Assembly: GCA_027923505.1 (NCBI GenBank)
Contig: BROI01000003.1
Span: 434,001-498,000 of the forward strand
Direction of reading: 5' to 3'
Origin: Mayamaea pseudoterrestris
Lineage: Eukaryota
Length of the DNA stretch: 64,000 nucleotides
Part shown: in pieces, positions 1-59,430 of the stretch
How positions within the stretch are numbered: the first letter of the stretch is position 1
Layout: every line of letters begins with the position of its first letter
The notes under the pieces: model-generated
Database searches by the model: none
What the model saw: the letters and a program-made list of their open reading frames with translations, nothing else
What the model was told of the DNA's origin: nothing
Program-made: the position numbers and the translations under genes

Positions 1-3000
1 GGTTATGGCGGCCAGCAACTGAGGACAAGCCTGGGGACATGAAATGCTGGCAGTCCCTGTGACAGAACTTTGAGACTGCATGGGTTATTGATGAATGCAT
101 TGCACTTTTGACATTATGAAACAATGCCTGTCAACTGCCAGCTATCTATTGATACCACTCTGGCTGTTGGAGTGGGTTATGGCAGCCAGCTACTGAGGAC
201 CAGCCTGGGGACATGAAATGATGGCAGTCCCTGTCCTGGAACTTGAAGACTGCATGGGCTAGTGATGAATGCATTGCACTTTTGACATCATGAAACAATG
301 CCTGTCAACTGCCAGCTATCAATTGACACCTCTCTGGCTGTTGGACTGGGTTATGGCGGCCAGCTACTGTGGACAAGCCTGGGGACATGAAATTCTGGCA
401 GTCCCTGTCATGGAACTTGGAGACTACATGGGCTAGTGATGAATGCATTGCACTTTTGACATCATGAAACAATGCCTGTCAACTGCCAGCTATCAATTGA
501 TACCACTCTGGCTGTTGGAGTGGGTTATGGCGGCCAGCAACTGAGGACAAGCCTGGGGACATGAAATGCTGGCAGTCCCTGTCACAGAATTTCGAGACTG
601 CATGGGTTATTGATGAATGCATTGCACTTTTTACATTATGAAAAAATGCTTGTCAACTGCCAGCTATCTATTGATACCACTCTGGCTGTTGGAGTGGGTT
701 ATGGCAGCCAGCTACTGAGGACCAGCCTGGGGACATGAAATGATGGCAGTCCCTGTCATGGAACTTGAAGACTGCATGGGCTAGTGATGAATGCATTGCA
801 TTTTTGACATCATGAAACAATGCCTGTCATCTGCCAGCTATCAATTGATACCACTCTGGCTGTTGGAGTGGGTTATGGTGGCCAGCTACTGAGGACAAGC
901 CTGGGGACATGAAATGCTGGCAGTCCCTGTCATGGAACATGAAGACTACATGGGCTAGTGATGAATGCTTTGCACTTTTGACATCATGAAACAATGCCTG
1001 ACAACTGCCAGCTATCAATTGATACCACTCTGGCTGTTGGAGTGGGTTATGGTGGCCAGCTACTGAGGACAAGCCTGGGGACATGAAATGCTGGCAGTCC
1101 CTGTCATGGAACTTGAAGACTCCATGGGCTAGTGATGAATGCATTGCAGTTTTGACATCATGAAACAATGCTTGTCAGCTGCCAGCTATCAGTTGACACC
1201 TCTCTGGCTGTTGGAGTGGGTTATGACAGCGAGCTACTGTGGGCAAGGCTGGGGACATGAAATTCCGGCAGTCCCTGTCACAGAACTTGGAGACTACATG
1301 GGCTATTGATGAATGCATTGCACTTTTGACATCATGAAACAATGCCTGTCAACTGCCAGCTATCAATTGATACCACTCTGGCTGTTGGAGTGGGTTATGG
1401 CAGCTAGCTATTGTGGACGAGCATGGGGAAATGAAATTCCGCCAGTCCCTGTCACAGAACTTGGAGACTGCATGGGCTAGTGATGAATGCATTGCACATT
1501 TGACATCATGAAACAATGCCTGTCAGCTGCCAGCTATCAATTGATACCACTCTGGCTGTTGGAGAGGGTTATGGCAGCGAGCTACTGTGGACAAGCCTGG
1601 GGACATGAAATTCTAGCAGTCCCTGTCACAGAACTTGGAGACCACATGGGCTAGTGATGAATGCATTGCACTTTTGACATCACGAATCAAAGCCCGTCAA
1701 CTGCCAGCTATCAATTGACACCTCTCTGGCTGTTGGAGTGGGTTATGGTGGCCAGCTACTGAGGACAAGCCTGGGGACATGAAATTCAGGCAGTCCTACT
1801 AGCAGAACTTGGAGACTACATGGGCTATTGATGAATGCATTGCACTTGTTACACCATTAAACAATCTTTGTCATCTGTCAGCAATCAATTTATACCTCTC
1901 TGGCCATTGGAGTGGGTCATGGCAGCCACCAACTGTGGACAAGCCTGGGGACACAAAACTCTGGCAGTCCCTGTTGCAGAACTTGGGGACTACATGGGCT
2001 AGTGATGAATGAATTGCACTTTTGACATCTTGAAGCAATGCCTGTTAACTGCCAGCTATCAATATATACCTCTCTGGCCAATGGAGTGGGTTATGGCAGC
2101 CAGCTACTGAGGACAAGCCTGGGGACATGAAATTCTGACAGTCCCTGTCACTGAACTTGGAGACTACATGGGCTAATGATGAATGCATTGCACTTTTGAC
2201 ATCATAAAACAATGCCTGGCAACTGCCAGCTATCAATTGACACCTCTCTGCCTGTTGGAGTGGTTCATGGCAGCCAGCTACTGGGGACAAGCCTTGGGAC
2301 ATGAAATGCTGGCAGTCCCTGTCACAGAACTTGGAGACTGCATGGGCTATTGATGAATGCATTGCACTTTTGACATCATGAAACAAAGCCTGTCAACTGC
2401 CAGCTATCAATTGATACCACTCTGGCTGTTGGAGTGGGTTATGGCAGCCAGCTACTGAGAACAAGCCTTGGGACATGAAATGCTGGCAGTCCCTGTCATG
2501 GAACTTGGAGACAACAAGGGCTAGTGATGAATGCATTGCACTTTTGCCATCATGAAACAATGCTTGTCAACTGCCAGCTATCAATTGACACATCTCTGGC
2601 TGTTGGAGTGGGTTATGGCGGCCAGCTACTGAGGACAAGCCTGGGGACATGAAATGCTGGCAGTCCCTGTCATGGAACATGGAGACTACATGGGCTAGTG
2701 ATGAATGCATTGCACTTTTGACATCATGAAACAATGCCTGTCAACTGCCAGCTATCAATTGACACATCTCTGGCTGTTGGAGTGGGTTATGGCGGCCAGC
2801 TACTGTGGACAAGCCTAGGGACATGAAATGCTGGCAGTCCCTGTCATGGAACTTGGAGACTACATGGGCTATTGACGAATGCATTGCACTTTTGACATCA
2901 TGAAACAATGCCTGTCAACTGCCAGCTATCAATTGACACCTCTCTGGCTGTTGGACTGGGTTATGGCGGCCAGCAACTGAGGACAAGCCTGGGGACATGA

Positions 3001-3259
3001 AATGCTGGCAGTCCCTGTCACAGAACTTCGAGACTGCATGGGTTATTGATGAATGCATTGCACTTTTGACATTATGAAACAATGCCTGTCAACTGCCAGC
3101 TATCTATTGATACCACTCTGGCTGTTGGAGTGGGTTATGGCAGCCAGCTACTGAGGACAAGCCTGGGGACATGAAATGATGGCAGTCCCTGTCATGGAAC
3201 TTGAAGATTGCATGGGCTAGTGATGAATGCATTGCACTTTTGACATCATGAAACAATGC
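1..3259. repeat. Satellite A, 174-bp monomer, ~18.7 copies visible (open at window start)
   Basis: GGTTATGG recurs at 1, 175, 349 and so on (period 174). Monomers differ almost only by substitutions. The array stops abruptly after AAACAATGC at ~3259. Confidence 0.97.
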
Positions 3260-3568
3260 ACAGAGAAGAAGTGCACAAGTAGAGTAGTGATGTAACACAC
3301 ATTATTCTAGCAATTGAGTTGTTGTTGTTGCCTTGCTGTGATGGACAAGGAGGTTGATCACTCCTAGTCCATTGTTGCTGCTGGAATAAAGGTTGGTCTG
3401 ATATTATCATGTCAGGCTTCATTCTTGTTTTGTGGTGGACACCATACTGGTATTTTCTTTTACTTCTCTTTGTAAGTACTTGCCATATAAAAAACCTACA
3501 CAACGCACAAGCCAGCAAGATTAACTTTGATTGAAAATGTGCTGAGAAGTTGTGTTCAGAATTTATGA

Positions 3569-5861
3569 GGAAAACATCTGCATTGAAAGATGTGCTGAGA
3601 AGATGTGCCAAGAAGATGTGCTGAGAAGATTTGCTGAGAAGATGTGCTGAGAAGATGTGCTGAAAAGATGTTGTTTGGAAATATATAATCTGTTCTGTTG
3701 CAGTCTTGGCAAAAACCAACTCGGATCTGTACGTTGCAGTCTCAACAGTATTTATGGTCTTGGAACCGCAAAAAAACCCGGGCTGCACCAGGGTGGAGCC
3801 GGAGGAGCTCTGGGACTTGGTATTGAGCTCGAGGAGATTGGCTTGGGGAACCCGCAAATCCGTGCGGTTGCGGGCAGGCTGCCACAATTTGCTTGGAGCA
3901 GAGGACATCATAATATGAGGCAGTGGCATCAGCAAACAGGTCTTTGGGCAGGCACCGCTGCTCCGCCATGAAGATTTGCCATTCACTTTCATGCATGAGA
4001 AAAACATCTGCATTGAAAGATGTGCTGAGAAGATGTGCTGAGAAGATGTGCTGAGAAGATGTGCTGAGAAGATGTGCTGAGAAGATGTGCTGAGAAGATG
4101 TGCTGAGAAGATGTGCTGAGAAAATGTGCTGAGAAGATGTGCTGAGAAGATGTGCTGAGAAGATGTTGTTTGGAAATCCATAATCTGTTCGTTGCAGTCT
4201 TGGCAACAACCAACTCGGATCCGTACGTTGCAGTCTCAACAGTAAAACTGTAAAAAAACACCCGGGCTGCACCAGGGTGGAGCCGGAGGAGCTCTGGGAC
4301 TTGGTGTTGAGCTGGAGGAGACTGGCTTGGGGAACCTGCAAATCCGTGCGGTTGCAGGCAGGCTGCCACAATTTGCTTGGAGCAGAGGACATTATAATAT
4401 GCGGCAGTGGCATGAGCAAACAGGTCTTTGGGCAGGCACCGCTGCTCCGCCAAGAAGATTTGTCGTTCACTTTCACGCATGAGAAAAACATCTGCATTGA
4501 AAGATGTGCTGAGAAGATGTGCTGAGAAGATGTGCTGAGAGATGTGCTGAGAAGATGTGCTGAGAAGATGTGCTGAGAAGATGTGCTGAGAAGATGTGCT
4601 GAGAAGATGTGCTGAGAAGATGTGCTGAGAAGATGTGCTGAGAAGATGTGCTGAGAAGATGTTGTTTGGAAATCCATAATCTGTTCCGTTGCAGTCTTGG
4701 CAACAACCAACTTGGATCCGTACATTGCAGTCTCAACAGTAGAACTGCAAAAAACACCCGGGCTGCACCAGGGTGGAGCCGGAGGAGCTCTGGGACTTGG
4801 TGTTGAGCTGGAGGAGATTGGCTTGGGGAACCTGCAAATCCGTGCGGTTGCAGGCAGGCTGCCACAATTTGCTTGGAGCAGAGGACATCTGCATTGAAAG
4901 ATGTGCTGAGAAGATGTGCTGAGAAGATGTGCTGAGAGATGTGCTGAGAAGATGTGCTGAGAAGATGTGCTGAGAAGATGTGCTGAGAAGATGTGCTGAG
5001 AAGATGTGCTGAGAAGATGTGCTGAGAAGATGTGCTGAGAAGATGTTGTTTGGAAATCCATAATCTGTTCCGTTGCAGTCTTGGCAACAACCAACTTGGA
5101 TCCGTACATTGCAGTCTCAACAGTAGAACTGCAAAAAACACCCGGGCTGCACCAGGGTGGAGCCGGAGGAGCTCTGGGACTTGGTGTTGAGCTGGAGGAG
5201 ATTGGCTTGGGGAACCTGCAAATCCGTGCGGTTGCAGGCAGGCTGCCACAATTTGCTTGGAGCAGAGGACATTATAATATGAGGCAGTGGCATCAGCAAA
5301 CAGGTCTTTGGGCAGGCACCGCTGCTCCGCCAAGAAGATTTGTCGTTCACTTTCACGCATGAGAAAAGCATCTGCATTGAAAGATGTGCTGAGAAGATGT
5401 GCTGAGAAGATGTGCTGAGAAGATTTGCTGAGAAGATGTGCTGAGAAGATGTGCTGAGAAGATGTGCTGAGAAGATGTTGTTTGGAAATCCATAAGCTGT
5501 TCCGTTGCAGTCTTGGCAACAACCAACTCGGATCCGTACATTGCAGTCTCAACAGTATTTATGGTCTTGGAACTGCAAAAAAAACACCCGGGCTGCACCA
5601 GGGTGGAGCGGGAGGAGCTCTGGGACTTGGTGTTGAGCTCGAGGAGATTGGCTTGGGGAACCTGCAAATCCGTGTGGTTGCGGGCAGGCTGCCACAATTT
5701 GCTTGGAGCAGAGGACATCATAAGATGAGGCAGTGGCATCAGCAAACAGGTCTTTGGGCAGGCACCGCTGCTCCGCCATGAAGATTTGCCGTTCACTTCC
5801 ACGCATGAGAAAAACATCTGCATTGAAAGATGTGCTGAGAAGATGTGCTGAGAAGATGTTG
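3569..5861. repeat. Composite tandem repeat: 5 units of ~400-485 bp plus a partial sixth; each unit = (GATGTGCTGAGAA)n + inverted copia RNase H fragment + ~250-bp gene-like fragment
   Basis: ACATCTGCATTGAAAGATGTGCTGAGAA restarts at ~3574, 4004, 4488, 4885, 5368 and 5814. Each unit translates on the minus strand to TVETAT/MYGSE/KLVVAKTATEQIMDF. The 13-mer copy number is about 6, 11, 12, 11, 7, 2. Confidence 0.92.
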
Positions 5862-5993
5862 TAAGACCTGAGAACCCCAAAGAATGGTCTTGCGTTGGTT
5901 CTCGTCAATGATGCCGTCTCGCATGACCTTGTTGAAAAACTCACGGTTTTCCTGTGACATGGGCAATGGATATGTAGTGAAGGCTGCTTGACG

Positions 5994-7060
5994 CATTATG
6001 AGTACGTCTGTGTCTTTATGGTGATTTGGCGATGGCTATGAAGAATCCTAAAGCCTTCATGGATGAGCTCAGGTCCAAGTACAACTACAAATTGAAAGGT
6101 GTTGGTCTGATTTCCTACTATTTGAGTGCAGACTTCTTCCGCAATCCTGATGGAACGCTGTGCATGGGCGCCAAGACTTATATCGGCGGGCTGCTCAAGA
6201 ACTATGAAATGATGTTTGGTAAGAAGGCCAAGCTGAGGATGTCACCCATGGACAATTTTGACTATTCTGAGCTTGATATTGATGAGTTGGATGTGAAGGG
6301 TATTTGGATGTACCAGTCTGTGATTAAGACACTTCAATGGGCAATAAGCTTGTTTCGTTACAACTTTCACTATGGGTCATTTTTTAGTTGCGCCGCTGTA
6401 TGGCCATCTTTAGCGTTTGAAATGGATTGATGGCTACCTTGCTCGGTATCCGGATGCTGATATTCATTTTGCTTTGGCATTCCTCATCATGATGCACCTG
6501 AGCCAGTGGAGTGGGTATAGACTGTCTATGGAGACAGCGCTGATGAGGAGCCATGGAACATGCCCATGCCAAGGGGCAAATTCATCCGTCTGACAACTTT
6601 TGAAAACGCCAACCTGTATCATGAATATACTACAGGCCGCACTGCCATGGGTGTCCTGCATTTCTTGAACCAGGCTCTGGTTGAGTGGTTGTCCAAGAGA
6701 CAGAACACGTTGAGACTGCCACGTATGGATCCAAGTTTGTCTCTGCCAAGACTGTGACAGAGCAGATTATGGATTTCCGGTACACTCTGTATGTGATGGG
6801 TGTTCCATTGGATGGACCTGCGTGGATGTTTGGAGACAATGAGAGCATTGTCACTTTGTCAACTATTTCTCACTCGTCACTTACCAAGCAACACCATGCA
6901 CTTGTGCACCACAGGGTTTGCAAAGCAATTGCCTTTGGAGTGCTGCATTTCAAGCACCTCTCGGGCAAGCAGAACACGAGTGACGTGCTTACCAAGTTAT
7001 TTCCCCATGCGGTGTTTGGGCCATTAATTTGGCCAGTGCTTTTCTGGAGAGGTGAGACGG
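5994..7060 (+). pseudogene. Decayed Ty1/copia (CoDi-like) RT - RNase H fragment
   Basis: Frameshifted pieces HYEYVCV, KYNYKLKGVG..YYLSADFFRNPDGTLCMGAKTY, YQSVIKTLQWAISL, ETATYGSKF, FGDNESIV, NTSDVLTK, PVLFWRGET are collinear with the C-terminus of the intact polyprotein at 9866-15721. Confidence 0.92.
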
Positions 7061-7529
7061 TGATGGAGGATGGAGTAGCACAAGCTTGGACTCTGGGGAT
7101 GATGCAATGTAGGCAAATGGAGAGCCTGAATCTTATGCGACATGGTTTGTTATTCTACATCCCAAGGGTGATCCAGTTATTTAACTCTCACACTCATCCT
7201 GTGTTGACCTCATGGTATGGAGGAGCTATGTCTTCTTCTTCTTGGACAGTAGCCATGGTGTAGAATCAATGGAGTGGGAGAAATCACTGACCCGTACGAA
7301 GTAGGGTCCAGTGAGTATAAATTTTCTCGCATCTGTCAGTCAAGGTGTCTGTGTGACTACCGGTAAATTAATGAAACTTTAACGTACAGAACCCATCGGA
7401 ATGCTAAATGTCACATTGACGCATTACTTCAGATAACTATAAGGACCGCACAAAGCTGTACAGTACCATAACATAGGAAATAGGTAACATCCATATACTA
7501 TTAATATTATTGACAGGCCCTAACCACAA

Positions 7530-7870
7530 TAGCAGAGCTACCGTCACCCACCAGTGCACTACATGCAGAGGTGCACATGTATCTACTCAGCTATCTGATA
7601 CGAGCCATTGGGAAAGGCACCACTACACTGCAAAAGGCAGAGCTACAGTCAGGCCCCACACTACAAACCCCGCACTACAAGCAGCAAATGAAAGAGGTCT
7701 CAGGTGTCTATGGAGCTACCATCCAGCTACAAATATGACTATGGAGACAAGCCCTACACTCTAAATGGCAGAGCTACAGTCAGGCCCTATTGGTGCTCGA
7801 CAAGCAGCAGATCTACATCAAGATCTCAGGGAGCTACCATCCAGCTACCAATATGATACAGTCAAGCCCA
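7530..7870. repeat. Diverged short tandem duplication (~105-130 bp spacing)
   Basis: GCAGAGCTACMGTCA at ~7532, 7637 and 7768; GGAGCTACCATCCAGCTAC at ~7712 and 7830. Confidence 0.55.
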
Positions 7871-8491
7871 ACACTACAATTTGCGGTGCTATACAGTCGC
7901 ACAGGGAACACCTCCTTCCGCGCGCAAGTGCTGGGGCAGTGCCACAGACAGTGAGGTCCCCTTGTACATACCGCAAGAATATATACCCTAAGAATAATCA
8001 AGGGAGTTGATTTATCTGAGTGATGCTTGAAATACACCTTGGTCTTTAATCTCTCTGTCTGCCTGACTTGTGTAGATTGAAGCCTCAAACAGCAAAAGAA
8101 CGAGTTGTCTCAGCTGCCCTTGTAGTGTGCAATAAATCAATGGGAGTGGTCATCACCAGTGCCCGAGAGAGTGGTTTGTTGTAAAGACCAAAGTGTATGA
8201 TCTGACATGATGCAGTTCCAGTACAGAAGCGCCTGCAACGCGTCCTCACCCTCTGTAGTCTGAAAAGGATTAGCAATTCCTAAATAAAAATGCAGATGTC
8301 TGGAAACATCTATGTTGAGCAATGATGAGAACCCAAACCAAAGCGACACGGATGATGTCACAAAGACGGTCACGTTTAAGCAAGCGCGGTAAGCGGCAAA
8401 GAAGGAGTGGATCGAGGACGATCACTTCTTGGAGAAAATAAGTAAAGTGGTTTTATTGACTCTGATCTGCTTAATCATTTGTGTTGCTTCA

Positions 8492-9373
8492 ATGGCGCGC
8501 AAGAAATATTCTAGATCCAACATTTTCTCCAAGAAGGGAGTGAAAAGACATGTCTTTGATGACGAGCAATACTCCGACGACAGGAGCGACATCGAGTGGT
8601 TGAGGTGCAACGCCTCCCGCTCCACCAGCAAGTGAAGGAAGCCGACGCAACCATTATTGTCATGGTAATCATGCTGGGAATTGTGCCGGGAATCAAGGCA
8701 ACAGCAATGGAAGCAGACTCAACGGACCGAGTTGTGCGCCTCGGAAATTTCCAAGGCAGCGAGCCCACACTGGCTGGTTACATTTACGATTACAACGGTT
8801 CATGCAATCCCGATGGATTCATCCGCACAACAAATGAAATTATCACTTACATTGGGTGCTTCTACAAGAAATATACCAAGGAGCTGCTCAAGGGAATGCG
8901 CAACGTGGAACTGAAGATTCTTGACGAGACTGCGCGTCCAGTCAATGATGCCAACATGATGGACTCGGACTGTTCCATAGTGCTCAAGGAATATAAGGCT
9001 GACAAAAAAAGAGCATGTTGAGCGTGTGCGCATGTACTCCGACTTCCTTGCTGGCCTCTACGCCGTGTTGTATGGACAATGCACGGAGCGTATGAAGGAT
9101 TGTGTCAAGTCGCATGCCAAGTTCCGAGATGCCGAGGAAGACACGGACGGAATGCAGTTGCTGGCAATCATCAAAGAGATCTCACATACGTACGAAGGGC
9201 ACTGCAAACTTGTGGATCAAGTCATGGACATTCAAGCTGATTTGTTCGGATGTACTCATGTTCGCGCAGCCGCCAAAGGTGAACATTTTGAAAAAGGCTG
9301 TACTTTTGGACAATCAGTCAACAGTGGATCTGTTCTGCAATGCCAAGATGCTGAAGAACATTTGCCCGGTTCC
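8492..9373 (+). pseudogene. Older copia element, 5' part (degenerate gag and start of aspartic protease); target of the nested insertion
   Basis: Broken frames give FQGSEPTLAGYIYD..FIRTTNEIITYIG and LYGQCTERMK..DGMQLLAIIKEI (diatom copia gag-like). They continue as VLLDNQSTVDLFCN..KNICPVP (protease), which is cut exactly at the LTR start. Confidence 0.8.
9369..9373 (+). other. 5-bp target-site duplication GTTCC (partner at 16071-16075)
   Basis: GTTCC lies immediately before the 5' LTR and immediately after the 3' LTR. Confidence 0.95.
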
Positions 9374-9768
9374 TGACAAGTCGCAGAGCGGCGAAGTCAA
9401 GAGCCCGAACCCTAATTAGCTTGTGTCGAGTCCGCAGCTGTCGTATGTGACATGTGACTGAAGAAAGTGCGCAACCGTCGTGTGGATGCGTTGTATGAAT
9501 GGAACGACCAGTTACGACTGATGTAATGTGATTGAAAGAAACGGATTGATCGGATGATCTTCCGAGTGGTCGATGTAGCGATGTAGCGATAAGCTCACAA
9601 TATAGAACTACTAGTTTGCGACGAGAGTGCAGTCGTATTCGTGTAGTGGCGAGCGCAAGACTATTCGATGAGCCATCTCCATCAAGAGCTGTACAGACCG
9701 TGGCCAAGGACCCTGTATCGGAGCTTTTTGGAGGTAAGACGTTGACTGCGAAATCGTCAACGGTGTTA
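9374..9768 (+). repeat. 5' LTR (TGACAAG...GGTGTTA)
   Basis: Matches 15676-16070 with 3 substitutions found by eye. Confidence 0.96.
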
Positions 9769-9865
9769 GATTAACATTTCAGTGCTTCGAGAGCAAGAAC
9801 GAGCGAGGGAGCTATCGTGACACATTCGTCTGCAGCGAGTCCGATTCCTCTGATCAACCTCCAAC

Positions 9866-12800
9866 ATGGCGACGATTGATGTAACGACATACAAGCGTGT
9901 CGTCGGTAAAGTCTTCGATATTCCGTGGCTCGCAGCGTCCGCAGCTTGGGATCCAAACGACCCTACCGCAGTGTGTTTCGAGCAAGAGGAACTCACGACT
10001 GCGGAGGCGATGGCCGAACTGTCGGAACAAGACGTGACGAACATTAAGACCCAGTACCAGTGGTCGACGATACGAACAAGCCGATTGCGCAAGCTCATGA
10101 GTTGGATTCACGAGCAACGTCGGACGACTGCGCAATGGCAAGACTTGGAGAAAGACCAGATTACGAGCCGAGACCTCCCAGTAGCGCCGGGGTCACCGAC
10201 AGCAGGCAACCGCAGTTTCGGAGACTTTAGCGTTATCGGAGGCAACGACACCACGACGAAGCGACACGACATCAAGCTGGATCTGAAGACCATGCTGGAG
10301 CTCAAGAACGATCGCAAGTTCTGCTCCTACTGGCGGGCCTTCAAGAACCGCATGCGAAGCGAGCGACTTGGCTATTTTTGGGACGACGAGTTCAAGGCAC
10401 CAGCCGCACTCGACCCCGAATTCGCCAAGTATAAGTATCAGTGTTCGAAGCTTTTAGCGGCACTCGAGTATACCTGCAAGACACCGCAGAGCAAGCTCAT
10501 TGTCCGCAAGCACATCGACAGCGCGAATGCCTCAGCGTGCATTGCAGAGTTGGAGGCGACATTCCTCGACGGGATGGCGCGCAAGTTGGATCTACGTACG
10601 GCCGAAGACGAATGGCGCAATTACACCCTCGATGCGAGTTACGCCAAATCTCTCGTCAATTGGCTCATCCAGTGGTCCAGCAAGGAAGAGAACTACAATG
10701 ACTACGCCGAGGAAACCGAGCTACTTACAGCAAGCACGAAGCGTCAGATTTTGGAACGCGCGGTTTTCCGCCATGCGGATATGGCAGCGGCGGTGAACAT
10801 GGCGCTGATCGAAGAGTCCAAGACCGGCAACCCGATGGCGTACACCCAGTTTTGGAACCTCCTGAACGACGTCGCACGTCAATCTGACAATCGTCGTGGC
10901 ATCAAGGAGACCGAGAAGCGTCAGGCGAACCAATCTGAGCAGACCAAGAAAGAGAAGGAGAAGACGAAGAAGGCAAGCATGAACAATTCCCAGTCTACGC
11001 CAAGTAGCAGCAACAATCAGCAATCCAATCAGGGGGGCGGTGGTCGCGGCGACTTGAGCACGGGACGAGGCGGCGGCAGCGGCCGCGGTCGGGGAGATAC
11101 TCGTACGTATGTTCGCAGCTATGCCGACACGAAGACGATCGAAATCCCCAGCGACGTGAATGCGACGATTCCACCAAACACGTGGCGACTCCTTACCCGC
11201 GATCAGCAACATGAAGTGTTTGAACGCCGTGGTACGAGTCGTGCGGCTAGTGCTGCAGGTGGTTCGACATCAGCAACACAGGCAGGCACCATGCAGACGA
11301 CGAGTACAACACGCAACGCAAACGTCGCAGCCACTTCATCAGCGGCAACGACGGCGAGTGCGGCGACCGAGCGTGTGAACAACACCAGCCGTGGCTCAGC
11401 GATGCAAAGTTTCTTAGGTCCAGACCAGCCCACGACTACGACTCGGGGAGCGAATATCGCTCAGAGTCGCAAGTACAAAGTCGCGAGCATTGACTTGGAT
11501 AAGCATTCAGCGTCGACTGTCGATCGCGGCGCGAGTGGCGGAGTATGGGGAGCGGACGGCCGCATCCTTACCGAGGACAAGTTCCACAAGATTGAAGTCA
11601 CTGGAGTCGGTGGTCTCAAACTTCCGGACCTGTCTACCGTCACAGCAGTCGCCAAGCTTAAGAGCACCAAGGGTTGGGTCGTCGGTGAGTTCCATAACTA
11701 TGCATATTCTGGAACCGGCAAGACGATTCATTCGAGTATGCAGATGGAAGCCTTCGGACTTCATGTCAACGACAAGCATTACAACTTTGGTGGCAAGTTA
11801 CGAATCGAAACGCCAGACGGATACAAGTTTATGCTCGGAATGGAAAGTGGCATGGCGACCTTGCCAATGTTTCCAGTGTCGGCGCATGAGCTTCACACCT
11901 TACCTCGGGTCATGATGACCTTCGATGGACCGTGGGATCCGAATGAGTTTGACGTCGAGCCGACCGAGGACGACGACTATGACTCTTCGGATGACGATGA
12001 CGACGAGGACGACGTACCGGACTTGTTGTCGCGCGACGAAGACGACGAAGACAGTGACGACGAAGAGGGCTTCACGCGCGTGACACGTTCGCGTACGCGG
12101 AATCGAACCCATCGTCAAAGCAACGTGACTTATACGAATCTCGGACACGACAATCAACCTGTTTACACCAAGAAGGAGCTGAATGTTTGTGCCGTCGTAC
12201 AGAAGTACAATGCGGATCTCGTCTATCAGCCCTACAAGTCTATCCTGCCAAAGAAACCTGATATCGACGCATTGCTGCCGAACTTTGCATGGTACCCGGC
12301 GCAGACGATCAAGGATACTTTGCGCCACAGCACGCAGTTCAACATGCACGAGCGCCGATACCCCCCACGAATGCATCGAAAGAGCCGATTCCTGAACGTC
12401 TACCGTCTAGATGATCGAGTGGCCCATGACACCATGTTCTTCGACGAACCAGCCATGGATGATCACATCGACGGACATGCAGGGTGCACATGCGTGCAGC
12501 TATTCTATGGTTGTCGCAGTCAGATCATTGTCGTGTATCCCATGCGGACGAAAGGCGACGTACCGAAACGATTCCGTGATTTCATCCGCGAGTTTGCAGC
12601 TCCGTTGGAAGTCTTCTCGGATAATGCGAAAGAAGCGATGAGTGCCGAGTTTGACGAAGTAATGCGCGAGTTCATGATTCGCCGTCGTCATACATCGGAG
12701 CCGTACTATCAGAATCAGAATCCAGCCGAGCGCATCATCGGGCACGTAAAGGAAAGTCATGAACGACTTATGGACCGAACGGGCACTCCGGCATGTTTCT

Positions 12801-15721: not shown

Positions 15722-16070
15722 CTTGTGTTGAGTCCGCAGCTGTCGTATGTGACATGTGACTGAAGAAAGTGCGCAACCGTCGTGTGGATGCGTTGTATGA
15801 ATGGAACGACCAGTTACGACTGATGTAATGTGATTGAAAGAAATGGATTGATCGGATGATCTTCCGAGTGGTCGATGTAGCGATGTAGCGATAAGCTCAC
15901 AATATAGAACTACTAGTTTGCGACGAGAGTGCAGTCGTATTCGTGTAGTGGCGAGCGCAAGACTATTCGACGAGCCATCTCCATCAAGAGCTGTACAGAC
16001 CGTGGCCAAGGACCCTGTATCGGAGCTTTTTGGAGGTAAGACGTTGACTGCGAAATCGTCAACGGTGTTA
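15676..16070 (+). repeat. 3' LTR
   Basis: Direct repeat of 9374-9768 (offset 6302). Confidence 0.96.
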
Positions 16071-16075
16071 GTTCC

Positions 16076-16600: not shown

Positions 16601-16611
16601 TGCGATCCCTG

Positions 16612-39107: not shown

Positions 39108-39520
39108 ATGTAACTCATTTATCTAATTTCTACTTGTTACTCTATTGTATAAGTGGTTGGTATAAATACGCTGATTGGAACTGGTTCTCACCTGGCGTTA
39201 CTCTTGCATACTGAAGATTTTGCTCCGTGCCGTTGCTTCGTTCGAGACTGCAGCTAGCGGTAGTTCGTTGGGAGTTTACAATAGCATGTACCGGTACAGA
39301 GTCTGCGATGGATGAGTAGCTGTCTAATAATGTATTGGTGTGTTTATGTTTATAAGAGTTACCCTTTCGAGTCATATTCTTCGACCGAGACGCTTGATAA
39401 ATTCTTGCTCTGCCTGTCGCCGGTCGTTATGTTTTTACAGCTGCCTTTCGGACTCGCTTGCAATCATGTATAGATAGGAGCAAGCCGCTAGCTGCTAATC
39501 ATAGATTCGTCGCTCATGTT

Positions 39521-40022
39521 TTACTTGTTGTGCGGCAAAAAGTGAAAGGCATCGTCGAGGAGCAAGACGAACGGAAAGAGCGTCAATGGGTATGCCCACC
39601 AGTTCATTTCCCACGGTCTGTCCGAAATAAAACGAATAAATAATGTGAGCAAGTGAATAATTAGCAAGGCAAATGTCGTTTGATTCACTCATTCACCCTA
39701 TTCATTCATTCATCACTTCATTCACATATACTCACCGAGTATTCGCTTCCATGGCTGGATCAACCCACTTGACCTCCTTGATTTCGCCAGTGTTCATGTC
39801 CTTGACGACATTGCGAGGCGTCTGCGTCGTGGAAAGATTACTCAGGGCATCGGCATCCGAGCTAGACTCTACCGTTTCAAGTCCCTTGTTTTCGTTATTG
39901 TCAGTGGCGAACATGGAGCGAGCAAACGACGAGGAAGCGACTGCTCGGGATGATGGAGGAATGACGGAGAAGCCCGAGACGGATGCGACAGCAACGACCA
40001 GTAGGAGACTAAAGAGCTTCAT
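39521..40022 (-). CDS. Small predicted plastid-targeted membrane protein (~127 aa); exons 40022-39736, 39617-39521
   Basis: Signal peptide MKLFSLLLVVAVASVSG followed by F at +1 (ASAFAP-type motif) and an S/R-rich transit peptide. Intron GTGAGT..ACAG joins to a hydrophobic tail WWAYPLTLFPFVLLLDDAFHFLP. The 3' end is uncertain (possible extra exon). Confidence 0.75.
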
Positions 40023-40367
40023 CACGATTGTTCAGGTAAAAAGATGGAAGAAATGCGTAGAAAAAGACTTGAATGTGAGCGAGAAGCTGGTTTATAAGGA
40101 TGGTGGAGCGTAGCGTGACAGCAAGATCTCGCTGCGGAACGAAAGGCGACTTCAACTTGCTTGAATACCGATCCGACTCACATGCAAGACGGAGTCATGG
40201 TGCGATAGGTCCTGATCAATTGGATATCCGCCTCCCTTCTACCAGTACAGACTATGGTGCATGCAGTAGCCTACACTACCTCAACACAAGCTTCATTTAC
40301 ATATTGAAATAAAGAAAAAAAAGCAAAATTCACTAGTCATGGCAAGCAAACACTTATGTATGCATTA

Positions 40368-43300
40368 GTGAGACTCAGCTTGCAGATCTAACAACTTGTT
40401 GGATCTGCTAGCAGTGCACCTCAAGTGGCACTTCAGACTGCCTGAACGGCCTGCCAATACTGGAATACAATGCGCATTGTGTTTCCATTTGATTCGGACT
40501 CAAAGACTTGTCACCTTGGGTGTGGAACCCATCCCTTTGCCATGAGACTCTGCACATTCAACCAATGGTTGAATGTGCCAGCGGTGCACCCTTTTTGGCT
40601 ACAGGAATCATCAGCGCTGCCTTCTGAGCCCTGAGATCCTTTCCAATTCATGTTTGGTGTCATGATGGGCCAATGATTTGGTCAGTTGCGCCCATTCCAC
40701 TCTCCACCACCATGTATGCCATGGTGAGAATCAGCTTGCAGATCCAACAACTTGTTGGATCTGCTAGCAGTGCACCTCAAGTGGCACTTCAGACTGCCAG
40801 AATGGCCTGCCAATAAAGGACTACAATGAGCATTGTGTTTCAATCTGATTTGGACTCAAAGGCTTGTCACCTTGGGTGTGGAACCCATCCCTTGGCCATG
40901 AGACTCCGCACATTCATTCAATGGTTGAATGTGCCAGCGGTGCACCCTTTTTGGCTACAGGGATCATCAGCGCTGCCTTCTGAGTCTGAAATCCTTTCCA
41001 ATTCATGTTTGGTGTCATGATAGGCCAATGATTTGGTCAGTTGCACCCATTCCAGTCTCCACCACCATGTATGCCATGGTGAGACTCAGCTTGCAGATTA
41101 AACAACTTGTTGGATTTGCTAGCAGTGCACCTCAAGTGGCACTTCAGACTGCCATTATGGCCTGCCTATAAAGGAATACAATGAGCATTGTGTTTCCTTT
41201 TGATTAGGACTCAAAGACTTGTCACCTTGGGTGTGGAACCCATCCTTTTGCCATGAGACTCCGCACATTCAACTAATGGTTGAATGTGCCAGCGGTGCAC
41301 CCTTTTTGGCTACAGGGATCATCAGCGCTGCCTTCTGAGCCCTGAAATCCTTTTTCATTCATGTTTGAGGTCATGATGGGCCAATGATTTGGTCAGTTGC
41401 GCCCATTCCAGTCTCCAACACCAGGTATGCCATGGTGAGACTCAGCTTGCAGATCCGACAACTTGTTGGATCTGCTAGCAGTGCACCTCAAGTGGCACTA
41501 TAGACTGCCAGAATGGCCTGCTAATAAAGGAATACAATGAGAGTGTTTCATTCTGATTAGGACTCAAAGACTTGGCACCTTGGGTGTGGAACCCATCCCT
41601 TTGCCATGAGACTCCGCACATTCAACCAATGGTCGAATGTGCCAGCAGTGCACCCTTTTTGGCTACAGGGATCATCAGCGCTGCCTTCTGAGCCCTGAAA
41701 TCCTTTTTAATTCATGTTTGAGGTCATGATGGGCCAATGATTTGGTCAGTTGCGCCCATTCCAGTCTCCACCACCATGTATGCCATGGTGAGACTCAGCT
41801 TGCAGATCCAACAAATTGTTGGATCTGCTAGCAGTGCACCTCAAGTGGCACTTCAGACTGCCAGAATGCCTGCCAATACAGGAATACAATGAGAGTGTTT
41901 CATTCTGATTAGGACTCAAAGACTTGTCACCTTGGGTGTGGAACCCATCCCTTTGCCATGAGACTCCGCACATTCAACCAATGGTCGAATGTGCCAGCAG
42001 TGCACCCTTTTTGGCTACAGAGATCATCAGCGCTGCCTTCTGAGCCCTGAAACCCTTTTAAATTCATGTTTGGTGTCATGATGGGCCAATGATTTGGTCA
42101 GTTGCGCCCATTCCAGTCTCCAACACCAGGTATGCCATGGTGAGACTCAGCTTGCAGATCCGACAACTTGTTGGATCTGCTAGCAGTGCACCTCAAGTGG
42201 CACTATAGACTGCCAGAATGGCCTGCTAATAAAGGAATACAATGAGCATTGTGTTTCAATCTGATTTGGACTCAAAGGCTTGTCATCTTGGGTGTGGAAC
42301 CCATCCCATTGCCACGAGACTCCGCACATTCAATCAATGGTTGAATGTACCAGTGGTGCACCCTTTTTGGCTACAGGGATCATCAGCGCTGCCTTCTGAG
42401 CCCTGAAATCCTTTCCAATTCATGTTTGGTGTCATGATGGGCCAATGATTTGGTCAGTTGCGCCCATTCCAGTCTCCACCACCGTGTATGCCATGGTGAG
42501 ACTCAGCTTGCAGATCCAACAACTTGTTGGATCTGCTAGCAGTGCACCTCAAGTGGCACTTCAGACTGCCAGAATGGCCTGCCAATAAAGGAATACAATG
42601 AGCATTGTGTTTCAATCTGATTTGGACTCAAAGACTTGTCACCTTGGGTGTGGAACCCATCCCTTGGCCATGAGAACCCGCACATTCAACCAATGGTTGA
42701 ATGTGCCAGCGAAGCACCCTTTTTGGCTACAGGGATCATCAGGGCTGCCTTCTGAGCCCTGAAATCCTTTCCAATTCATGTTTGGTGTCATGATGGGCCA
42801 ATGATTTGGTCAGTTGCGCCCATTCCAGTCTCCAACACCAGGTATGCCATGGTGAGACTCAGCTTGCAGATCCAACAACTTGATGGATCTGCTAGCAGTG
42901 CACCTCAAGTGGCACTTCAGACTGCCAGAATGCCTGCCAATAAAGGAATACAATGAGCATTGTGTTTCAATCTGATTTGGACTCAAAGACTTGTCACCTT
43001 GGGTTTGGAACCCATCACTTGGCCATGAGAACCCGCACATTCAACCAATGGTTGAATGTGCCAGCGGTGCACCCTTTTTGGCTACAGGGATCATCAGCGC
43101 TGCCTTCTGAGCCCTGAAATCCTTTCTAAGTCATGTTTGAGGTCATGATGGGCCAATGATTTGGTCAGTTGCGCCCACCCATTCCAGTCTCCACCACCAT
43201 GTATGCCATGGTGAGACTCAGCTTGCAGATCCAACAAATTGTTGGATCTGCTAGCAGTGCACCTCAAGTGGCACTTCAGACTGCCAGAATGGCCTGCCTA

Positions 43301-46300
43301 TAAAGGACTACAATGAGCATTGTGTTTCCATTTAATTTGGACTCAAAGACTTGTCACCTTGGGTGTGGAACCCATCCCTTTGCCATGAGACTCCGCACAT
43401 TCAATCAATGGTTGAATGTGCCAGCAGTGCACCCTTTTTGGCTACAGGGGTCATCAGCGCTGCCTTCTGAGCCCTGAAATCCTTTCTAAGTCATGTTTGG
43501 TGTCATGATGGGCCAATAATTTGGTCAGTTGCGCCCACCCATTCCAGTCTCCACCACCATGTATGCCATGGTGAAACTCAGCTTGCAGATCCAACAACTT
43601 GTTGGATTTGCTAGCAGTGCACCTCAAGTGGCACTTCAGACTGCCAGAATGGCCTGCCAATAAAGGAATACAATGAGCATTGTGTTTCCGTATGATTAGG
43701 ACTCAAAGACTTGTCACCTTGGGTGTGGAACCCATCCTTTTGCCATGAGACTCCGCACATTCAACCAATGGTTGAATGTGCCAGCGGTGCACCCTTTTTG
43801 GCTACAGGGATCATCAGCGCTGCCTTCTGAGCCCTGAAATCCTTTCCAATTCATGTTTGGTGTCATGATGGGCCAATGATTTGGTCAGTTGCGCCCATTC
43901 CAGTCTCCACCACCATGTATGCCATGGTGAGACTCAGCTTGCAGATCCAACAACTTGTTGGATCTGCTAGCAGTGCACCTCAAGTGGCACTTCAGACTGC
44001 CAGAATGGCCTGCCTAGAAATACACCAAGTTTCTGATTTGGACTCAAAGGCTTGTCACCTTGGGTGTGGAATCCATCCCTCTGCCATGAGACTCCGCACA
44101 CTTGTCAACCATGTTGGGTGTGCCATGCACCCTTTTGCTACATGAGCATCATCACGCAGCCTTCTGAGCACTGAAAATCCTTTTAATTCATGTTTGGTGT
44201 CATGATGGGCCAATGATTTGGTCAGTTGCGCCCACCCATTCCAGTCTCCACCACCATGTATGCCATGGTGAGACTCAGCTTGCAGATCCAACAACTTGTT
44301 GGATCTGCTAGCAGTGCACCTCAAGTGGCACTTCAGACTGCCAGAATGGCCTGCCAATAAAGGAATACAATGAGCATTGTGTTTCCATTTAATTTGGACT
44401 CAAAGGCTTGTCACCTTGGGTGTGGAACCCATCCCTTTGCCATGAGAACCCGCACATTCAACCAATGGTTGAATGTGCCAGCGGTGCACCCTTTTTGGCT
44501 ACAGGGATCATCAGCGCAGCCTTCTGAGCACTGAAATCCTTTCCAATTCATGTTTGGTGTCATGATGGGCCAATGATTTGGTCAGTTGCACCCATTCCAG
44601 TCTCCACCACCATGTATGCCATGGTGAGACTCAGCTTGCAGATCCAACAACTTGTTGGATCTGCTAGCAGTGCACCTCAAGTGGCACTTCAGACTGCCAG
44701 AATGGCCTGCCAATAGAGGGATACAATGAGCATTGTGTTTCCATATGATTAGGACTCAAAGGCTTGTCGCCTTGGGTGTGGAACCCATCCCTTTGCCATG
44801 AGACTCCGCACATTCAACCAATGGTTGAATGTGCCAGCGGTGCACCCTATTTGGCTACAGGGATCATCAGCGCTGCTTTCTGAGCCCTGAAATCCTTTCC
44901 AATTCATGTTTGGTGTCATGATGGGCCAATGATTTGGTCAGTTGCGCCCATTCCAGTCTCCAACACCAGGTATGCCATGGTGAGGCTCAGCTTGCAGATC
45001 CAACAACTTGTAGAATATGCTAGCAGTGCACCTCAAGTGGCACTTCAGACTGCCAGAATGGCCTGCCTATAAAGGAATACAATGAGCATTGTGTTTCCAT
45101 TTAATTCGGACTCAAAGGCTTGTCACCTTGGGTGTGGAACCCATCCCTTTGCCATGAGACTCCGCACATTCAATCAATGGTTGAATGTGCCATTGGTGCA
45201 CCCTTTTTGGCTACAGGGATCATCAGCGCTGCCTTCTGAGCCCTGAAATCCTTTCCAATTCATGTTTGGTGTCATGATGGGCCAATGATTTGGTCAGTTG
45301 CGCCCACCCATTCCAGTCTCCACCACCGTGTATGCCATGGTGAGACTCAGCTTGCAGATCCAACAACTTGTTGGATCTGCTAGCAGTGCACCTCAAGTGG
45401 CACTTCAGACTGACAGAATGGCCTGGCAATTAAGGAATACAATTAGCATTGTGTTTCAATCTGATTTGGTCTCAAAGGCTTGTCACCTTGGGTGTGGAAC
45501 CCATCCCTTGGCCATGAGACTCCGCACATTTGACCAATGGTTGAATGTGCCAGTGGTGCACCCTTTTTGGCTACAGGGATCATCAGCGCTGCCTTCTGAG
45601 CCCTGAAATCCTTTCTAAGTCATGTTTGGTGTCATGATGGGCCAATGATTTGGTCAGTTGCGCCCATTCCAGTCTCCACCACCATGTATGCCACGGTGAG
45701 ACTCAGCTTGCAGATCCAACAACTTGTTGGATCTGCTAGCAGTGCACCTCAAGTGGCACTTCAGACTGCCAGATTGGCCTGCCAATAACGGAATACAATG
45801 AGAATTGTGTTTCCATTTGATTTGGACTCAAAGGCTTGTCACCTTGGGTGTGGAATCCATCCCTCTGCCATGAGACTCCGCACATTCAATCAATGGTTGA
45901 ATGTGCCATTGGTGCACCCTTTTTGGCTACAGGAATCATCAGCGCAGCCTTCTGAGCCCTGAAATCCTTTTTTATTCATGTTTGGTGTCATGATGGGCCA
46001 ATGATTAAGTCAGTTGCGCCCGTTCCAGTCTCCACCACCATGTATGCCATGGTGAGACTCAGCTTGCAGATCCAACAACTTGTTGGATCTGCTAGCAGTG
46101 CACCTCAAGTGGCACTTCAGACTGCCAGAATGCCTGCCAATAAAGGAATACAATGAGCATTGTGTTTCAATCTGATTTGGACTCAAAGACTTGTCACCTT
46201 GGGTTTGGAACCCATCACTTGGCCATGAGAACCCGCACATTCAACCAATGGTTGAATGTGCCAGCGGTGCACCCTTTTTGGCTACAGGGATCATCAGCGC

Positions 46301-49300
46301 AGCCTTCTGAGCACTGAAATCCTTTCCAATTCATGTTTGGTGTCATGATGGGCCAATGATTTGGTCAGTTGCACCCATTCCAGTCTCCACCACCATGTAT
46401 GCCATGGTGAGACTCAGCTTGTATATCCGACAACTTATTGGATCTGCTAGCAGTGCACCTCAAGTGGCACTTCAGACTGCCAGAATGGCCTGCCAATAGA
46501 GGGATACAATGAGCATTGTGTTTCCATATGATTAGGACTCAAAGACTTGTCACCTTGGGTGTGGAACCCATCCCTTTGCCAGGAGACTCCGCACATTCAT
46601 TCAATGGTTGAATGTGCCAGCGGTGCACCCTTTTTGGCTACAGGGATCATCAGCGCTGCCTTCTGAGCCCTGAAATCCTTTCCAATTCATGTTTGGTGTC
46701 ATGATGGGCCAATGATTTAGTCAATTGCGCCCATTCCAGTCTCCAACACCAGGTATGCCATGGTGAGACTCAGCTTGCAGATCCAACAACTTGTAGGATA
46801 TGCTAGCAGTGCACCTCAAGTGGCACTTCAGACTGCCAGAATGGCCTGCCAATAAAGGAATACAATGAGCATTGTGTTTCAATCTGATTTGGACTCAAAG
46901 ACTTGTCACCTTGGGTGTGGAACCCATCCCTTGGCCATGAGACTCCGCACATTCAACCATTGTGCCAGCGGTGCACCCTTTTTGGCTACAGGGATCATCA
47001 GCGCTGCCTTCTGAGCCATGAAATCCTTTCCAATTCATGTTTGGTGTCATGATGGGCCAATTGTTTAGTCAGTTGCGCCCATTCCAGTCTCTACCACCAT
47101 GTATGCCATGGTGAGACTCAGCTTGCAGATCCGACAACTTGTAGGATCTGCTAGCAGTGCACCTCAAGTGGCACTTCAGACTGCCAGATTGGCCTGCCAA
47201 TAACGGAATACAATTGCACCTCAAGTGGCACTTCAGACTGCCAGAATGGCCTGCCAATAAAGGAATACAATGAGCATTGTGTTTCCGTATGATTAGGACT
47301 CAAAGACTTGTCACCTTGGGTGTGGAACCCATCCTTTTGCCATGAGACTCCGCACATTCAACCAATGGTTGAATGTGCCAGCGGTGCACCCTTTTTGGCT
47401 ACAGGGATCATCAGCGCTGCCTTCTGAGCCCTGAAATCCTTTCCAATTCATGTTTGGTGTCATGATGGGCCAATGATTTGGTCAGTTGCGCCCATTCCAG
47501 TCTCCACCACCATGTATGCCATGGTGAGACTCAGCTTGCAGATCCAACAACTTGTTGGATCTGCTAGCAGTGCACCTCAAGTGGCACTTCAGACTGCCAG
47601 AATGGCCTGCCTAGAAATACACCAAGTTTCTGATTTGGACTCAAAGGCTTGTCACCTTGGGTGTGGAATCCATCCCTCTGCCATGAGACTCCGCACACTT
47701 GTCAACCATGTTGGGTGTGCCATGCACCCTTTTGCTACATGAGCATCATCACGCAGCCTTCTGAGCACTGAAAATCCTTTTAATTCATGTTTGGTGTCAT
47801 GATGGGCCAATGATTTGGTCAGTTGCGCCCACCCATTCCAGTCTCCACCACCATGTATGCCATGGTGAGACTCAGCTTGCAGATCCAACAACTTGTTGGA
47901 TCTGCTAGCAGTGCACCTCAAGTGGCACTTCAGACTGCCAGAATGGCCTGCCAATAAAGGAATACAATGAGCATTGTGTTTCCATTTAATTTGGACTCAA
48001 AGGCTTGTCACCTTGGGTGTGGAACCCATCCCTTTGCCATGAGAACCCGCACATTCAACCAATGGTTGAATGTGCCAGCGGTGCACCCTTTTTGGCTACA
48101 GGGATCATCAGCGCAGCCTTCTGAGCACTGAAATCCTTTCCAATTCATGTTTGGTGTCATGATGGGCCAATGATTTGGTCAGTTGCACCCATTCCAGTCT
48201 CCACCACCATGTATGCCATGGTGAGACTCAGCTTGCAGATCCAACAACTTGTTGGATCTGCTAGCAGTGCACCTCAAGTGGCACTTCAGACTGCCAGAAT
48301 GGCCTGCCAATAGAGGGATACAATGAGCATTGTGTTTCCATATGATTAGGACTCAAAGGCTTGTCGCCTTGGGTGTGGAACCCATCCCTTTGCCATGAGA
48401 CTCCGCACATTCAACCAATGGTTGAATGTGCCAGCGGTGCACCCTATTTGGCTACAGGGATCATCAGCGCTGCTTTCTGAGCCCTGAAATCCTTTCCAAT
48501 TCATGTTTGGTGTCATGATGGGCCAATGATTTGGTCAGTTGCGCCCATTCCAGTCTCCAACACCAGGTATGCCATGGTGAGGCTCAGCTTGCAGATCCAA
48601 CAACTTGTAGAATATGCTAGCAGTGCACCTCAAGTGGCACTTCAGACTGCCAGAATGGCCTGCCTATAAAGGAATACAATGAGCATTGTGTTTCCATTTA
48701 ATTCGGACTCAAAGGCTTGTCACCTTGGGTGTGGAACCCATCCCTTTGCCATGAGACTCCGCACATTCAATCAATGGTTGAATGTGCCATTGGTGCACCC
48801 TTTTTGGCTACAGGGATCATCAGCGCTGCCTTCTGAGCCCTGAAATCCTTTCCAATTCATGTTTGGTGTCATGATGGGCCAATGATTTGGTCAGTTGCGC
48901 CCACCCATTCCAGTCTCCACCACCGTGTATGCCATGGTGAGACTCAGCTTGCAGATCCAACAACTTGTTGGATCTGCTAGCAGTGCACCTCAAGTGGCAC
49001 TTCAGACTGACAGAATGGCCTGGCAATTAAGGAATACAATTAGCATTGTGTTTCAATCTGATTTGGTCTCAAAGGCTTGTCACCTTGGGTGTGGAACCCA
49101 TCCCTTGGCCATGAGACTCCGCACATTTGACCAATGGTTGAATGTGCCAGTGGTGCACCCTTTTTGGCTACAGGGATCATCAGCGCTGCCTTCTGAGCCC
49201 TGAAATCCTTTCTAAGTCATGTTTGGTGTCATGATGGGCCAATGATTTGGTCAGTTGCGCCCATTCCAGTCTCCACCACCATGTATGCCACGGTGAGACT

Positions 49301-51105
49301 CAGCTTGCAGATCCAACAACTTGTTGGATCTGCTAGCAGTGCACCTCAAGTGGCACTTCAGACTGCCAGATTGGCCTGCCAATAACGGAATACAATGAGA
49401 ATTGTGTTTCCATTTGATTTGGACTCAAAGGCTTGTCACCTTGGGTGTGGAATCCATCCCTCTGCCATGAGACTCCGCACATTCAATCAATGGTTGAATG
49501 TGCCATTGGTGCACCCTTTTTGGCTACAGGAATCATCAGCGCAGCCTTCTGAGCCCTGAAATCCTTTTTTATTCATGTTTGGTGTCATGATGGGCCAATG
49601 ATTAAGTCAGTTGCGCCCGTTCCAGTCTCCACCACCATGTATGCCATGGTGAGACTCAGCTTGCAGATCCAACAACTTGTTGGATCTGCTAGCAGTGCAC
49701 CTCAAGTGGCACTTCAGACTGCCAGAATGCCTGCCAATAAAGGAATACAATGAGCATTGTGTTTCAATCTGATTTGGACTCAAAGACTTGTCACCTTGGG
49801 TTTGGAACCCATCACTTGGCCATGAGAACCCGCACATTCAACCAATGGTTGAATGTGCCAGCGGTGCACCCTTTTTGGCTACAGGGATCATCAGCGCAGC
49901 CTTCTGAGCACTGAAATCCTTTCCAATTCATGTTTGGTGTCATGATGGGCCAATGATTTGGTCAGTTGCACCCATTCCAGTCTCCACCACCATGTATGCC
50001 ATGGTGAGACTCAGCTTGTATATCCGACAACTTATTGGATCTGCTAGCAGTGCACCTCAAGTGGCACTTCAGACTGCCAGAATGGCCTGCCAATAGAGGG
50101 ATACAATGAGCATTGTGTTTCCATATGATTAGGACTCAAAGACTTGTCACCTTGGGTGTGGAACCCATCCCTTTGCCAGGAGACTCCGCACATTCATTCA
50201 ATGGTTGAATGTGCCAGCGGTGCACCCTTTTTGGCTACAGGGATCATCAGCGCTGCCTTCTGAGCCCTGAAATCCTTTCCAATTCATGTTTGGTGTCATG
50301 ATGGGCCAATGATTTAGTCAATTGCGCCCATTCCAGTCTCCAACACCAGGTATGCCATGGTGAGACTCAGCTTGCAGATCCAACAACTTGTAGGATATGC
50401 TAGCAGTGCACCTCAAGTGGCACTTCAGACTGCCAGAATGGCCTGCCAATAAAGGAATACAATGAGCATTGTGTTTCAATCTGATTTGGACTCAAAGACT
50501 TGTCACCTTGGGTGTGGAACCCATCCCTTGGCCATGAGACTCCGCACATTCAACCATTGTGCCAGCGGTGCACCCTTTTTGGCTACAGGGATCATCAGCG
50601 CTGCCTTCTGAGCCATGAAATCCTTTCCAATTCATGTTTGGTGTCATGATGGGCCAATTGTTTAGTCAGTTGCGCCCATTCCAGTCTCTACCACCATGTA
50701 TGCCATGGTGAGACTCAGCTTGCAGATCCAACAACTTGTAGGATATGCTAGCAGTGCACCTCAAGTGGCACTTCAGACTGCCAGATTGGCCTGCCAATAA
50801 CGGAATACAATGAGAATTGTGTTTCCATTTGATTTGGACTCAAAGGCTTGTCACCTTGGGTGTGGAATCCATCCCTCTGCCATGAGAACCCGCACATTCA
50901 ACCAATGGTTCAATGTGCCAGCAGTGCACCCTTTTTGGCTACAGGGATCATCAGCGCAGCCTTCTGAGCCCTGAAACCCTTTTAATTCATGATGTGGCAC
51001 TTCAGACTGCCAGAATGGCCTGCCAATAAAGGAATACAATGAGCATTGTGTTTCAATCTGATTTGGACTCAAAGACTTGTCACCTTGGGTGTGGAACCCA
51101 TCCCT
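40368..51105. repeat. Satellite C, ~356-bp unit (ancient dimer of ~170 + ~186 bp subunits), ~30 copies
   Basis: GTGAGA(C/A)TCAGC at 40368, 40724, 41079, 41435, 41788... The two halves align around GCCATG..GAGACTC..palindrome..GTGCACC. Confidence 0.97.
43618..50811. repeat. Near-identical tandem duplication of a 3597-bp block inside satellite C (43618-47214 = 47215-50811)
   Basis: Private variants and ORF-track entries recur at offset 3597 (43876/47473, 45223/48820, 46010/49607). There is an out-of-register junction at 47214/47215. Confidence 0.9.
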
Positions 51106-59370: not shown

Positions 59371-59430
59371 TAGTCTGCATGCATCGGGTCCGATCGTGCC
59401 AAGTTTTGTCTGAGTACAATTTAACCGATA

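Follow-up and report, generated by a model that had tools for sequence, protein, structure and literature searches.

Nucleosome-length satellites of the diatom Mayamaea pseudoterrestris: three families that are probably alike by convergence

Do satellites of nearly equal length that lie close together and share many short words descend from one ancestral monomer? The question is raised by a 64,000-nucleotide window of the diatom Mayamaea pseudoterrestris (assembly GCA_027923505.1, contig BROI01000003.1, positions 434,001 to 498,000; G000:C3:434001-498000 in our coordinates), taken from an assembly of 30.6 Mb in 41 contigs. The window carries three satellites, which we name A (174-bp monomer), B (169-bp monomer) and C (a 356-bp dimer of subunits C1, 180 bp, and C2, 176 bp). 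A preliminary description had read them as one diverged superfamily, derived from a single monomer of 170-180 bp, with local homogenisation of each array and conservation of length. Our analysis favours three separate satellite lineages that have become alike by convergence, a reading to which we assign a probability of roughly 70%. The arrays are arranged as follows.

1-3259, no strand assigned: satellite A, period 174, 18.7 copies, 90% matches
16742-31976, no strand assigned: satellite B, 169-bp monomer containing a palindrome with 9-bp arms, indel-rich past ~27.5 kb
31977-32225, no strand assigned: CATT-type microsatellite dividing array B
32226-34869, no strand assigned: variant subtype of satellite B, period 169, indel-rich
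40356-51105, no strand assigned: satellite C, period 356, 29.8 copies, dimer of C1 and C2

All three form long head-to-tail arrays of 19 (A), approximately 100 (B) and 30 (C) units with ~88-90% matches, and each family recurs as repeated non-coding DNA on many contigs, in many dispersed arrays. The three satellites are therefore real, as had been described, and so are the homologous halves of the 356-bp unit. The relationship of C1 to C2 also provided a positive control for the comparisons below. None of 100 shuffles reached its semi-global score, all 200 shuffles were exceeded in a dinucleotide-shuffle test, and profile-profile comparison gave a z of 17 (0 of 60 shuffles); the alignment comprises 106 identities, 53 mismatches and 38 gap positions.

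Comparisons between families gave a different picture. Consensuses of two kinds were tested, those of the window and those built genome-wide; fetching approximately 0.69 Mb around arrays yielded nine families with 11 monomers of 162-187 bp, and a tenth family, M (173 bp), was recovered later. Alignment in all rotations and on both strands against dinucleotide shuffles, the check by which a common origin had been proposed to be judged, returned z values of 0.8 for A-B, 2.2 for A-C and 0.7 for B-C. In semi-global alignment, the number of shuffles per 100 that equalled or exceeded the observed score was 43 for A-B, 57 for A-C1, 16 for A-C2, 43 for B-C1 and 62 for B-C2. Profile-profile comparison placed the cross pairs at 4-57 of 60 shuffles, against 0 of 60 for C1-C2 and likewise for G1-G2, the halves of a further dimeric family. 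Among 35 local tests (five scorings, four C subfamilies), only three, two for A-B and one for B-C, had their score equalled or exceeded by no more than 11 of 200 dinucleotide shuffles. Profile hidden Markov models (HMMs) scored within reach of shuffles (per 300: A to B 41, B to A 160, A to C1 177, A to C2 13, B to C1 25), a merged C model did so towards both A (109 of 300) and B (229 of 300), and profile comparison of five kinds of intact C dimer with the other families gave nothing consistent. A single A-B-C superfamily is thus not supported: A-C and B-C fall inside the shuffle range in nearly all tests, and A-B is borderline.

What, then, makes the three look related? Motif strings had been put forward as collinear blocks. 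Of 25 such strings checked, including two consensus variants added here, 24 are present in the window consensuses, but their matches are not clearly above chance; GCCGC is absent from the A consensus, which reads GCTGC there, and the CCATG placed after AGTCTCCA reads CTATG. The mutations within the arrays point to a source for such words. Cytosine in CpG shows transitions at 10.2% in the window arrays, compared with 0.6-3.8% in other contexts, and CpG observed/expected is 1.14 in genes and 0-0.44 in the monomers. CG is the most depleted dinucleotide, and CA and TG are the most enriched; the families are CA/TG-rich and CG/TA-poor like decayed retrotransposons, at an array guanine-cytosine (GC) content of 48-50%. 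CATG, CCAT and CTTG rank among the top words both in the satellites and in decayed retrotransposon DNA, with which the dinucleotide profiles of the monomers correlate at 0.69-0.96, as opposed to -0.39 to 0.36 with a young copia element. The words common to A, B and C are best explained by CpG decay, the methylation behind it being deduced from mutations; CG methylation has been described on repeats and transposons in diatoms (PMC9998398).

We propose that unequal exchange and gene conversion would homogenise the arrays, which are seen to be dispersed and to change in copy number at a locus, while prolonged CG methylation followed by deamination would give rise to words common to families, consistent with the rapid CpG transitions and the decayed-retrotransposon-like composition. 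A bias towards the nucleosome repeat length, acting on units born or kept in silent chromatin, could account for monomers of 162-187 bp. The arrays would most likely be islands of methylated heterochromatin that also receive copia insertions.

Distant kinship between satellites does exist in this genome. Family K (183 and 172 bp), located at L067:8365-10000 (G000:C25:438365-440000) and at many further loci, is genuinely, if remotely, related to A: identity is 97 of 172 aligned bases (56%), the first 120 alignment columns are ungapped, and the collinear similarity runs the full length, above shuffles in both directions. With DNA profile HMMs the score was 35 bits one way and 44 bits the other (0 of 300 and 0 of 1200 shuffles), and the same tests found the C1-C2 control at 47-55 bits, above all shuffles. 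When searched against 917 kb of real DNA, in which B accounted for 184 kb, C for 61 kb and K for 37 kb, the A profile matched 201 K monomers (best 27.6 bits), two places in B (best 7.0 bits) and one in C2 (7.9 bits). Judged from sequence, A/K and C1/C2 are true deep homologies in which length has been kept at ~55% identity. Both fit the term superfamily as used for wheat satellites, namely homologous families from a common ancestor (PMC10827815); A, B and C together do not. Of the superfamily originally proposed, a satellite library, local homogenisation and retention of length (in C1/C2 and A/K) remain, but the single ancestor does not.

Two other families touch on A. Family M (L081:3633-4150; G000:C6:1106.6-1107.2k) is a possible third member of A/K. 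It scored 11.3 bits with a combined A+K profile (26 of 1200 shuffles), and K and M, compared by way of A, have the same base at 82 of 167 sites, beyond the 95th percentile obtained with shuffled B. Family G (L029:1-4824) is a 371-bp dimer of 187 and 184 bp. The A profile matched G1 weakly (1 of 300 and 0 of 150 shuffles), and the A+K profile gave no strengthening.

The kinship of A and K allowed K to be used as an outgroup. Compared by way of A, K and B have the same base at 66-68 of 169 sites (39-40%), where shuffled B has a median of 40%; in simulation, relatives with an equal A-B score reached 39% or less in 2-10% of runs. Sites shared by A and B, or by A and C, are not preferentially retained in K (p 0.60-0.99). 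The A+K profile reached B no better than 96 of 1200 shuffles, and no bridging family turned up in a search of ~0.9 Mb selected near known arrays, out of the 30.6 Mb assembled.

Several observations nevertheless weigh against convergence and towards descent of A, B and C from one 170-180-bp monomer, with pairwise identity now at ~50% or less. The lengths are similar, deep divergence with length kept occurs here in A/K and C1/C2, and the tests lose power close to the identity in question: in a simulation of semi-global alignment, detection was 90% at 58% identity, 47% at 51% and 3% at 46%, dropping away below ~50%. Weak same-strand signals are also present in some of the local tests and elsewhere. 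A block-chain statistic, an imitation of comparison by eye, was reached by 3-14 of 300 shuffles for A-B and A-C; B against merged C1/C2 gave 3-7 of 600 (21 of 400 if only B was shuffled); and the genome-wide consensuses of A and B, scored leniently in semi-global alignment, were reached by 6-8 of 700 shuffles on the strand originally proposed (p ~0.01; 104 identities, 67 mismatches and 22 gap positions), with z 2.2-3.2 across six lenient scorings. Direct junctions of A arrays keep the orientation of the preliminary description in 6 of 6 A-C and 6 of 7 A-B cases, and one A-C junction (L012) lies, as read by eye, in its register. Against the proposed length bias, a nucleosome repeat length for diatoms was not found in the literature searched, the nearest value being 178-179 bp in Nannochloropsis (PMC12744764). 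These signals, however, fail to agree on one strand and register across pairs. Best matches between B and C lie in different registers, the signal of B against merged C1/C2 being a brief common word whose register is not the one proposed, and the best A-C chain changes strand with the consensus used: with the genome-wide consensus it lies opposite to the strand on which reverse-complement A had been aligned with C. The block chain was rejected as a homology test: the C1-C2 control goes undetected by it, its outcome varies with the parameters, and it responds to a piece of decayed retrotransposon, with which A formed a chain of 37 bases compared with 32-43 bases for the satellite chains. The largest control value, which stemmed from a piece overlapping array B, was discounted. 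Junctions between B and C are divided evenly, 6 same and 6 opposite. Three of the four scored C arrays adjoining A belong to one subfamily, 93-96% alike, and their orientation was therefore probably inherited from one composite block, so that the junctions are not independent. Merged A+K and C1+C2 profiles also miss the other families. Taken together, we regard descent of all three from a single monomer as highly doubtful. Two further observations concern orientation: all four B-H junctions are in opposite orientation, and a held-out set of 15 new regions contained no direct junction, with nearby arrays in the same orientation once (L075) and in the opposite orientation once (L078).

A more restricted kinship, in which A (with K) and B alone are distant relatives and C is separate, draws on the lenient A-B alignment, on 25 weak matches of the A+K profile in B arrays (best 8.7 bits) and on the orientation bias of the A-B junctions. 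Yet A-D scores as high as A-B (z 3.3) among 66 pairs, and since the A-B alignment uses 190 bases of B for 174 of A, the circle is not closed. With window consensuses, z for A-B is only 0.6-1.6 (11-34 of 120 shuffles); K-B reaches z 0.8, on the other strand. Common ancestry of A and B thus finds some backing under one family of lenient global scorings but none from the profile HMMs in either direction or from the outgroup comparison, which stands at chance level. We consider it very unlikely, and retain three separate lineages as the best account of A, B and C.

Separate lineages would have had separate beginnings, and for B the retroelements of the window offer a candidate. They lie between arrays A and B.

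3260-3420, no strand assigned: fragment with ~82% similarity to each terminal repeat of a copia family (L117) present in the same genome
3587-5859, minus strand: compound tandem repeat of ~380-500 bp, comprising a 13-bp minisatellite and a piece of copia RNase H
5860-9373, plus strand: decayed copia-like relics, including a reverse transcriptase-RNase H remnant at ~6000-7100
9374-16070, plus strand: young Ty1/copia element with a 1955-amino-acid open reading frame containing RVT_2

The young element has two long terminal repeats (LTRs) of 395 bp, identical at 392 of 395 positions, is flanked by a 5-bp target duplication (GTTCC) and is missing from the sister block on contig C14 (L080). At least 17 copies in the assembly have an identical RNase H protein, and in 8 of 30 fetched copies a B or D satellite is no more than 1.5 kb away from the RNase H match. 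Named homologues of the copia proteins of this genome include those of pennate diatoms. The compound repeat at 3587-5859, which recurs on contig C14 (L080) and in part on contig C7 (L129), includes a piece of copia RNase H; therefore, tandem repeats do arise from retroelements in this genome, and satellites born from LTR elements are known in Lathyrus (PMC7004042).

B itself may have arisen from the part of a diatom copia element that encodes RNase H, an origin that would be compatible with separate lineages. One reading frame of B resembles an RNase H motif. Against a C-terminal profile of 120 copia proteins B was the top of nine families (11 of 2000 shuffles), and it is likewise picked out by a profile built from the DNA of 43 natural RNase H stretches (0 of 150; 4 of 1650 pooled). 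The scores, however, are tiny (2-3 bits), the DNA match extends 30 bp at present, and pairwise DNA scores between B and copia lie within shuffles. Full-length copia profiles, the full-length profile being the better one, gave 14 of 540 and 128 of 540 pooled; the resemblance was, moreover, first spotted by eye and then tested on fetched sequences. We treat the origin of B in RNase H as a weak lead, possible though on balance improbable. Nothing in the protein profile, DNA profile or pairwise tests pointed to copia as a common source of A and C.

Array A extends upstream to approximately G000:C3:431.2k and then inverts; its turning point (L011:7151-7233; G000:C3:431.15k) holds an 80-bp piece of B. 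Unit lengths in array C reveal a recent duplication of nine units, and its sister locus on contig C9 (L064) has ~8 units compared with 30, between flanks that are 94-96% identical. Contig C14 (L080) carries a sister of the block that runs from A to the beginning of B; the two are ~97% alike for most of this length, falling to 89% in the final 0.7 kb. Overall, window 38000-53000 with L064 and window 1-16745 with L080 form sister loci of ~94-97% identity, gene-bearing flanks included, which would represent diverged haplotypes or duplicated segments. Array B is irregular and indel-rich at 27500-34650, resembling uncorrected long-read errors, and this part may be an assembly artefact. Contigs from two runs show a far greater depth over C than over its flank, and in contigs of run X1 the summed depth is ~7,000-470,000 over C compared with 100-400 on the flank; such depths are not copy numbers. 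Runs X4 and X5, in which C is present just as thin pieces lacking the flank, were not used.

The palindrome of B has arms of at least 9 bp in 48 of 61 copies scored (up to position 27400), and both C1 and C2 contain palindromes with 13-17-bp arms. A palindrome conserved across A, B and C was rejected, A having 6-bp arms in the window consensus only, lost genome-wide. Array C was also considered as a tandem terminal-repeat retrotransposon in miniature with C1 as the LTR, and rejected: target-site duplications are absent at its window ends, array end phases are scattered and no tRNA pattern matches. A shared transposon carrier for the arrays was likewise rejected, common flanks occurring only at sister loci or corresponding to copia ends, with end phases again scattered.

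The remainder of the window contains ordinary genes and a minor repeat.

Within 34951-39107 and 51504-58687, between and after the arrays: genes for a coiled-coil, glutamine-rich protein, a P5A-type ATPase and dymeclin
59430-59890: degenerate tandem repeat of 52, 72, 104 and 124 bp, with related pieces in L027 and L081

The coiled-coil protein had no Pfam match in the two frames scanned, and the window had no match in Rfam.

Comparable satellite libraries are known from other organisms. In Tribolium, a length preference of 140-180 bp is reported, and superfamilies account for only 11 of the 135 families (PMC12581902). The satellitome of Tribolium freemani, as presented there, resembles that of Mayamaea in its many families of near-nucleosome length, in the minority that belong to superfamilies (57-73% identity) and in its higher-order units of two or three diverged subunits. 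It differs in that the diatom repeats, in an assembly of 30.6 Mb, have ~50% GC and are CpG-depleted rather than AT-rich, and in that their arrays are dispersed among genes, with different families often adjoining (PMC12581902). A survey of centromeric satellites places 128 of 263 families at 100-200 bp, with 0.03% common 17-mers (10.64898/2026.09.17.752431). Monomer length, higher-order duplication, copia insertions and palindromes (here in B and C) are common to both, whereas each family here resides at many loci and its centromere role would be conjectural. The centromeres of Phaeodactylum are described as low-GC and repeat-free (10.1101/096016), unlike the present arrays in GC content and in the many loci of each family. 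CpG decay in repeats of a genome that is otherwise CpG-normal recalls the CG-methylated repeat islands of diatoms (PMC9998398), with the differences that satellites predominate here and that methylation is read from mutations. No description of a diatom satellite library was found in the literature searched, where most subscription journals lay outside coverage.

The length preference as such is well known in animals and plants. The present locus adds a clean case in which common length and the scars of methylation imitate ancestry, with A/K as a built-in positive control. In a compact genome with at least nine families of nucleosome length, the relation of monomer length to nucleosome spacing becomes testable. 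A bolder proposal, which we think rather unlikely, is that in this diatom, whose group is described as lacking centromeric repeats, satellite formation is quantised to one nucleosome, with units of 160-190 bp being cut from methylated retrotransposon DNA (in the case of B, copia RNase H) and their length held while the sequence drifts to ~55% identity. Were this so, the arrays would serve as a natural ruler for how nucleosomes are spaced in diatom heterochromatin, and a centromere of the satellite type might be among them.

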